Position numbers and translations under genes: made by a program. The notes below the pieces were generated by a model. It saw only the letters and a program-made list of their open reading frames with translations, did not search any database and was not told the origin of the DNA. Below are positions 21,808 to 23,351 of a DNA stretch of 64,000 nucleotides, in pieces. How positions within the stretch are numbered: position 1 is the first letter of the stretch; every line of letters starts with the position of its first letter. The DNA is from Escherichia phage OES_C-1, in the sequence record PQ553088; one strand, written 5' to 3'.

Positions 21808-22356
21808 ACCCAAGAAAACATCTACTGATCGTTGATACCACTGCAAATCCAAATAGCCATTACGCACATTAAACTGATAGAACATATGACAAGGTGGTAA
21901 TGCCATTTGCTTGAGTTCAGCTGGATTCCATGCTGAAACAACTTGACGTCTATCATTTGGCTGTTTTTTAATACGATCAATAACTTCTACAATTTGGTCT
22001 ACACCGCCAAAATCACGCCATTGTTTTCCATAAATTGGACCAAGTTCACCACTATGATATCCTAAATCTTTTGCTTGATTTTCGTAATTTTCATCCCAGA
22101 CTGTTTTGCCTTGAATTAATGAATCGTGTTGAATTAATCGTAAATCATTGACATTTGTGCTTCCTGATAAAAACCAAAGTAGCTCAGCAATGCAAGCTTT
22201 CCAGGCGAGCTTCTTAGTTGTTACTGCAGGAAAACCTTTACTTAAATCCCAGCGTAATTTAGTACCGAACAAAGCAATTGTTCCTGTGCCTGTTCGGTCA
22301 TCAGTTTCATAGCCATTTTCAAAAATGTCTTTAATTAAATCTTGGTATTGTTTCAT
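21808..22356 (-). CDS. td: thymidylate synthase, exon 1
   Basis: 183 codons MKQYQDLIKD...DVFLG; the track's stop codon TAA is the first intron triplet. Confidence 0.9.
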
Positions 22357-22401
22357 TTAGTACCTTATATAAATTATAATACATTTTATGAAGCTAAATA
22401 A

Positions 22402-22749
22402 TCAATACGGTTTAGCGTCAAATTTTCTTTCAATTTCAGGCGTGAAATATAATTCTTTACCACGTTTGGAAAAGCGACCAATAATATGATAATTATTCTC
22501 ATCAAACGTGATATTGCCAATATCCATAGCTTTCAACCAAATATCGATATTTCTGTCAAGCTTTATATCAAAATTCCAATACGGAGAACTATTACCGAAA
22601 ATACTGCAAGCGGATTCAGTGAAACAACTACTATAAATCTTGTCTTTAGGAACTACTAATTGATAGACGCCTTTAATAAACTGAGGACCTTTCCATTTTG
22701 GCTGTTTCGCGTCTTTTTCTAATAGAATAGGGTAATAATTAAAGCTCAT
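22402..22749 (-). CDS. hypothetical protein (115 aa from ATG; 119 aa from GTG) inserted between frd and td
   Basis: ORF track 22402..22761; ATG at 22749 lies 20 nt after the frd stop; no recognisable motif. Confidence 0.45.
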   Translation of the reverse strand: MSFNYYPILLEKDAKQPKWKGPQFIKGVYQLVVPKDKIYSSCFTESACSIFGNSSPYWNFDIKLDRNIDIWLKAMDIGNITFDENNYHIIGRFSKRGKELYFTPEIERKFDAKPY

Positions 22750-22769
22750 ATTTTCCGCCACGTGTTATT

Positions 22770-23351
22770 TCATTTATACACTGATTCCGTAAGGGTTGTT
22801 ACTTCATCTATTTTATACCAATGAGTTTCAACCATTTCACGCTTGCTTATATCATCAAGAAAACTTGCATCTAATTGAACGGTTGAATTAACACGATGCC
22901 TTTTAACGATACGAGAAACAACTACTTCATCTGCATAAGGTAATGCAGCATATAACAGAGCAGGCCCGCCAATTACACTTACATTAGAATTTTGATCAAG
23001 AATAGTCTCGAATGGCGCGCCAGAAATTGACATTTGAATTTCGTCGCCAGAAATGTAATCTATATATTGCTCCCATGTAATATAGAAATGTGCTAAATCG
23101 CCGTCTTTAGTTTCAGGATAATCACGCGCGAGGTCACACACTACAATATGTCTACGACCTGGAAGTAATGTAGGCAATGACTGGAACGTTTTAGCACCCA
23201 TAATCATAATTGTGCCTTCAGTACGAGCTTTAAAATTTTGGAGGTCCTTTTTAACTCGTCCCCATGGTAAACCATCACCTAAACCGAATGCTAATTCATT
23301 AAAGCCTTCGACCGTTTTAGTTGGAGAATAAGCGAATACCAATTTAATCAT
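22770..23351 (-). CDS. frd: dihydrofolate reductase
   Basis: 193 aa; sequence recognised as T4 DHFR. Confidence 0.9.

Follow-up and report, generated by a model that had tools for sequence, protein, structure and literature searches.

An accessory gene between frd and td of T-even phages, probably lost from the T4 lineage by deletion between short direct repeats

The 417-bp segment that separates frd from td in Escherichia phage OES_C-1 is very probably an accessory module that T4-like phages have long inherited vertically; it comprises a 115-codon gene, here called ORF X, and a spacer with promoter-like elements and a Shine-Dalgarno (SD) sequence just ahead of td. The original prediction had left two directions of change side by side, loss of the segment from T4 or gain of an ORF by this phage. 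Synteny, divergence parallel to that of frd, the rarity of the short allele and polymorphisms on the td side all favour the first, and in all likelihood the long allele is ancestral and the ORF was lost in the T4 lineage, a view derived from distribution and synteny and not from a rooted tree.

Gene organisation at the frd/td junction

The window, i.e. the whole 64,000-nt stretch analysed (record PQ553088), is a segment of a Tequatrovirus (T4-like) genome, and the 531 bases around the locus match those of Escherichia phages OES_C-2 and OES_C-3 at 100% identity and those of hundreds of T-even phages at 95-99%. Sequence and ORF list bear out the predicted layout, in which frd ends at 22770, td starts at 22356 and a 115-codon ORF lies between them, all on the minus strand. 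The 193-residue frd product (dihydrofolate reductase, 22770-23351; assigned from the ORF list, the annotation of near-identical phages and alignment to T4 frd) terminates at a TGA codon (22772-22770), followed by a 20-nt spacer (22750-22769), ORF X (22402-22749 in the ORF list, ATG at 22749, stop at 22404-22402), a 45-nt spacer (22357-22401) that holds the promoter-like elements and SD, and td exon 1 (21808-22356, ATG at 22356), the 3' end of which is approximate as it is taken from the 549-nt exon 1 of T4. A group I intron with the I-TevI ORF (21676-20939) and then td exon 2 complete the intron-split td gene (20480-22356).

The T4 locus has the same flanking genes and lacks both ORF X and the promoter-like spacer. 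In the T4 reference (NC_000866) frd occupies 145109-145690 and td begins at 145112, with a 4-base ATGA overlap and no gene between, so that the stop/start overlap that had been ascribed to T4 is confirmed by annotation and sequence alike, and neither the segment nor the ORF is present there. Nor did translation of the complete T4 genome in all six frames reveal any homologue of ORF X or of the two ORFs, Y and Z, that accompany or replace it in relatives (below). The T4 junction reads gtatatAAATGAAAcaatacc, and it is this sequence, a single G/A polymorphism in frd aside, that is generated by removing from the window one repeat copy together with the intervening DNA, as had been proposed. The 417-bp unit concerned (22360-22776, minus strand) is missing from T4 and its close relatives, and the repeat TAAATGAAA, which is found twice in the window at a distance of 417 bp, is found once in T4 and in five other T4-type loci. 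With the repeat at both ends of the long allele and one copy in the short, the T4-type junction is, by sequence comparison, that of a direct-repeat deletion.

ORF X is, judged by its substitution pattern, a real gene under strong purifying selection. Pairwise dN/dS values among the window, T2H, T6, RB14, RB51, PHB12 and Shf125875 are 0.00-0.06 at dS up to 0.93, rising to 0.09-0.26 against a 61%-identical metagenomic homologue, and the ORF is conserved across relatives, which disposes of the possibility raised at the outset that it might show no conservation. The window copy has S2 and K20 in place of the N2 and Q20 seen in most others. The frd-to-X spacer is conserved in T6, RB14, RB51, PHB12 and Shf125875, and in all copies compared it has an SD-like stretch, GG(C/T)GGAAAAT, ahead of the ATG. 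A GTG four codons further 5', which would give a 119-residue protein, was rejected as the start since the spacer of RB51 is 19 nt long and puts this codon out of frame, leaving the ATG at 22749.

Two variations at the frd end affect how the region is read. In RB14 (locus L020, 797-1411) and Shf125875 (L022, 794-1411) two extra A's (TATAAAAATGA) shift the frame, and frd is consequently annotated as 11 codons longer and overlapping the start of X. In the more distant relative at locus L012 it is the start of X itself that overlaps the frd stop as ATGA, from which Tequatrovirus and Mosigvirus appear to have gained approximately 24 nt between two ATGA motifs.

The direct repeat

The segment had been described as bracketed by an 8-bp direct repeat, AAATGAAA, at 22775-22768 and 22358-22351. 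Both positions are correct; the length is not, the exact repeat being the 9-bp TAAATGAAA at 22776-22768 and 22359-22351 (minus strand). Copy 1 spans the last frd codon, the stop and two nucleotides beyond, and copy 2 the three nucleotides before td, its ATG and its second codon. The match can be extended to 13 of 15 positions (22762-22776 versus 22345-22359; 14 of 16 by eye). The pair is the longest direct repeat of the region, and in the window the frequency with which a given position shows a 9-mer direct repeat 200-800 bp away is 1.55e-5. Three other direct repeats of 8-9 nt nevertheless occur within the same 531 bp, so repeats of this kind are common here, and most of the bases are fixed by coding, seven of nine in the frd copy (Tyr-Lys-stop) and six of nine in the td copy (Met-Lys). 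What is non-random is therefore the placement, the two copies coinciding precisely with the frd stop and the td start, respectively. Since coding constraints set so much of it, the repeat may have had no mechanistic role. Copy 1 also creates a two-codon mini-ORF, ATG AAA TAA (22764-22772, minus strand; ATGAAATAA), which the frd stop overlaps.

Alleles and their distribution

Three alleles occupy the site. The first, with ORF X, is found at 90% amino acid identity or more in 362 phage records by tblastn, and at the DNA level in 358 records with at least 80% coverage; its carriers include T2H, T6, RB14, RB32-type phages, RB51, RB9 and AR1. The second has a 68-residue ORF Z (PHROG 9550) in place of X and is present in 135 Tequatrovirus and Dhakavirus records at 90% identity or more. 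ORF Z (e.g. 2558-2764 in fPS-2, L006; 3148-3354 in L004; 3670-3879 in L012) is fitted tightly between its neighbours, its start overlapping the frd stop (ATGA) and its stop the td start (TAATG). Kinship of Z with X was rejected, the hhalign probability being 1%. Relatives of Z occur at 78% identity in Klebsiella F48-like phages, where they stand alongside X and Y, and at about 43% in Phapecoctavirus genomes, which are unrelated. The third allele, with nothing between frd and td, was counted with a 100-nt probe across the T4 junction at a stringency set to exclude half-matches, and is found in only 32 records. These comprise T4 strains, sequence fragments and about 13 relatives, among them RB55, RB59, e11/2, G28, F1, FN, HY03, SG1, G2133, JEP6, FL12 and FL18. 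In sum, one site is shared by the cassettes X, X-Y, X-Y-Z, Z and none.

Mosaicism is pronounced in the region. For td exon 1 there are two haplotypes with about 15% DNA divergence, and they assort independently of the junction allele, which by sequence indicates very fine-scale recombination; within Tequatrovirus e11/2 (L018), RB14 (L020) and fPS-2 (L006) differ in this respect from the window, T4 and T6. FL18 (L016, PP400780), although classed as a Mosigvirus, has a Tequatrovirus-like frd and a T4-type ORF-less junction with 97% identity to T4 over 100 nt, and this suggests that the region has been exchanged between genera. The junction lies about 550 bp from the td intron insertion site, and the intron is present in all six T4-type junction loci that were inspected, compared with two of five with the X allele and three of four with the Z allele. 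Intron homing with co-conversion of the exon might help to spread junction alleles.

Direction of the change

X lies directly after frd and ahead of td in the window and also in 12 related loci that represent at least six lineages. Homologues directly 3' of frd are found in at least five other lineages of Tevenvirinae: Mosigvirus (PHB12 and Shf125875, 92% amino acid identity), Kanagawavirus (PEi20, 45%), Jiaodavirus (ValerieMcCarty04, about 36-40%), Klebsiella phage Clarke_MM3 (about 30-34%) and Moonvirus (CF1, about 29-33%), and also in phage MH059636 and three metagenome contigs. Amino acid identity to the window declines in parallel for X and frd (92 versus 85%, 61-64 versus 49.5%, 45 versus 49% and 33-40 versus 45-49%), which fits long co-inheritance and not recent acquisition.

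Gain would invert this history. The T4-like ATGA overlap would be ancestral to Tequatrovirus and Mosigvirus, and a mobile-element-like or illegitimate insertion would have duplicated about 9-16 bp of the td start, leaving the frd-side copy as a decayed duplicate. A 9-bp direct repeat does bracket the insert, and its 13/15 extension takes in td codons 2-5 in slightly mutated form, resembling in sequence the target duplication that an insertion model predicts; presence/absence polymorphism is moreover typical of mobile ORFs, and some GenBank records label the ORF a putative homing endonuclease. Against this stand the shared post-frd position and parallel divergence, the finding of ORF X at a single place per record in all 554 records, and the restriction of the rare ORF-less junctions to close relatives of T4. 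Nor does X have a nuclease, transposase or integrase domain, and no convincing terminal inverted repeats are present, those found being short, AT-rich and not terminal. Gain is in our estimation decidedly improbable. Its transposon version was rejected, as the sole ORF of the segment encodes the 115-residue protein, with no transposase or integrase, and terminal inverted repeats are lacking.

It is also conceivable, if improbable, that the repeat is incidental to the grammar of gene boundaries (Lys-TGA and ATG-Lys) and that the T4 junction arose by another route, either by deletion of the Z allele between AATGA microhomologies or by exchange with an ORF-less phage. Besides the coding constraint on the repeat and the abundance of similar repeats nearby, AAATGAAA is over-represented in the window (27 occurrences, 15.7 expected), and the Z allele is bounded by AATGA...AATGAAA, deletion at which gives an identical junction. 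An ORF-less donor, however, merely moves the question to the donor, and the junction alignment of 16 phages points away from the Z allele. The first td polymorphisms beside the junction are of the X-allele type, CAAGATTTAATTAAAGAC, in six of six T4-type loci, while four of four Z-allele loci have CAATTTTTAATTAAAGAT, so that the T4-type junction most likely derives from an X-bearing parent.

Loss by deletion between the repeats, the reading we favour, would then have proceeded as follows. The repeats would be there largely because one covers the Lys-TGA stop and the other the ATG-Lys start. In an ORF-bearing ancestor, once or recurrently, replication slippage or microhomology-mediated illegitimate recombination between them would have deleted the unit, merging the stop of frd with the start of td as ATGA and thereby presumably coupling td translation to that of frd. 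T4 would have forfeited the local promoter-like element and SD, evidently without fatal cost, and the deletion allele would later have spread by recombination.

Deletions of T4 between short direct repeats are familiar from the classical rII deletion studies. The end points at frd/td likewise fall in a short direct repeat of which one copy is kept; the difference is that this case is a natural polymorphism deduced by comparison, not an observed mutational event. On this reading the frd/td difference is an ordinary T-even accessory-gene polymorphism and an ordinary direct-repeat deletion, and the junction provides a clean natural example of how a short repeat arising from stop and start context can excise a whole gene and re-create a translationally coupled pair.

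The spacer before td

The spacer had been credited with a promoter-like sequence and an SD close to td. Both kinds of element are present, with the reservation that the spacing of a T4 middle promoter is not cleanly fitted. In such promoters a MotA box, (a/t)(a/t)(a/t)TGCTTtA, lies 12+/-1 bp upstream of a good -10 element, TAtaaT (PMC2988021). Here a MotA-box-like TTTAGCTTCA with one box mismatch (22398-22389, minus strand) is followed after 10 bp by a perfect TATAAT (22378-22373), and at 12 bp there is just TAATTT. A sigma-70-like pair, TTGATT-18-TATTAT, was also called in the spacer. The off-spaced MotA-like box and TATAAT, together with the sigma-70-type pair, make a promoter immediately before td plausible as a prediction. 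A good SD, AAGG (22366-22363, minus strand), precedes the td ATG by 6 nt.

The spacer is near-invariant in the window, T2H, T6 (a 1-nt deletion), RB14 and RB51. In Mosigvirus it measures 13-15 nt (2430-2444 in L009, 1749-1761 in L022) and is without a core of about 30 nt, TTAGCTTCATAAAATGTATTATAATTTA, which holds both the MotA-box-like TTTAGCTTCA and TATAAT. The core has the look of a small regulatory cassette whose gain or loss did not depend on ORF X.

The X/Y protein family

The X protein (13.6 kDa, pI 8.8) is 96-98% identical to its counterparts in RB14, RB51 and T2H and belongs to PHROG 1928 (phrog_1928, E 8.2e-36, with residues 4-111 aligned to positions 2-125 of the 126 in the profile), itself a group with no assigned function. 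Searches of Pfam, NCBIfam and PDB sequences with the 115 residues gave nothing usable. When 1.84 billion representatives were searched exhaustively with HMMER, the family amounted to only 38 clusters at 50% identity, all of about 100-140 residues, with W19, G91, K95 and G97 invariant throughout and the motifs Q-x-K-W and G-R-F-x-K-x-G.

In several genera a second ORF, Y, follows X (3332-3673 in L012, 3344-3688 in L013, 2817-3173 in L002, 2790-3143 in L004 and 2787-3134 in L005), and X is often trailed by Y and then by the unrelated 68-residue Z. Both X and Y fall in PHROG 1928, and their hhalign probability of 98.2% (E 2.7e-14) identifies Y, at the profile level, as a tandem paralogue of X. 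It is distinguished by an insertion of about 17 residues after the conserved Trp, with the motif P-T-I-x-Q-[FY]-K-R-x-P. The window has no paralogue of X. In OR941409.1 (L024, 4001-4588) a predicted 195-residue protein joins the final 45 or so residues of a Jiaodavirus-type X to an unrelated N-terminal part; td and nrdA are split in the surroundings, which look rearranged or badly assembled.

The AlphaFold2 model of X, built from a 44-sequence alignment, is confident (pLDDT 90, pTM 0.83) and beta-rich with one helix. A structural search with this model returned no significant match, and the weak matches are mostly to OB-fold domains (SSB, RPA, S1, cold-shock and HIN), with which X shares the character of a small beta-rich domain. 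Our best guess from the model, held with low confidence, is that X is a small basic OB-like protein of beta-barrel type that binds nucleic acid or a partner protein.

The setting of X between two conserved genes and near a td intron with I-TevI might alternatively suggest a free-standing homing endonuclease of the seg/mob type, or its remnant, spreading by cleavage of ORF-less junctions, and X is labelled a putative homing endonuclease in BASEL-collection records and ValerieMcCarty04. But X matches no GIY-YIG, HNH or LAGLIDADG domain in Pfam, PHROGs or NCBIfam and no PDB sequence, its invariant residues form no catalytic motif, and with just 115 residues it is confidently modelled as a small beta-rich domain with weak OB-like matches. 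Strong long-term purifying selection and vertical synteny are likewise out of keeping with this idea, which has almost no chance of being right and is effectively refuted at the level of sequence.

Least certain are the propositions that X can be done without in the laboratory and is of use in nature under certain conditions, and that it is neither a nuclease nor a mobile-element protein. More speculatively, and with a low chance of proving correct, X and Y could constitute an unrecognised fold family, linked physically to frd/td across Tevenvirinae and under strong purifying selection, that works with thymidylate/folate enzymes or the dNTP-synthesising complex, or that counters a host defence T4 no longer faces. 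If so, the family would have been missed because the model phage deleted it, and a new accessory function would come to light on comparing T2 or T6 with T4. With its constraint, its tandem paralogues and its lack of a known fold match, the family is a reasonable, though not urgent, target for functional work.

Previous annotation and relation to other accessory genes

The core observation was already public. The RefSeq entries for RB14 (YP_002854567) and RB51 (YP_002854187) list the product as 'RB32ORF229c hypothetical protein' and remark that the gene is 'flanked by 9 bp repeat'; in the T2H entry AY262132 the ORF is called td.1 (protein ABI48932). It is the same gene in the same place, and nothing material differs in the window. 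No paper discussing td.1 or RB32ORF229c was found in the literature searched; a review of T4-related genomes mentions frd only as a quasi-core gene (PMC2993671). New here, and minor, are the three-allele picture, the X/Y paralogy, the strength of selection on X, its confident unmatched fold and the absence of the family from T4.

Like the ORFs of the plastic and hyperplastic accessory regions of T4-related genomes (PMC2993671), X is a small non-core ORF among conserved nucleotide-metabolism genes. It differs from accessory ORFs of that kind in being unusually old and conserved, syntenic across genera and with dN/dS no higher than 0.06.

T4, the family reference, is atypical at this site, since a frd/td gene that it lacks is present in about 94% of related phage records. 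Transfer of annotation from T4 consequently leaves X hypothetical or mislabelled, and in some records it appears as 'putative homing endonuclease' or 'glucose-1-phosphate adenylyltransferase', labels that are unsupported. Records with annotation errors are MZ501052, MZ501066, MZ501046, OR271596, PQ571308, OR125554, AP018814 and KR269718. The neighbouring genes are affected too: the T6 record gives I-TevI as 'RNA polymerase sigma factor for late transcription', and the HY03 record (KR269718) presents frd and td as prohead core and portal proteins.
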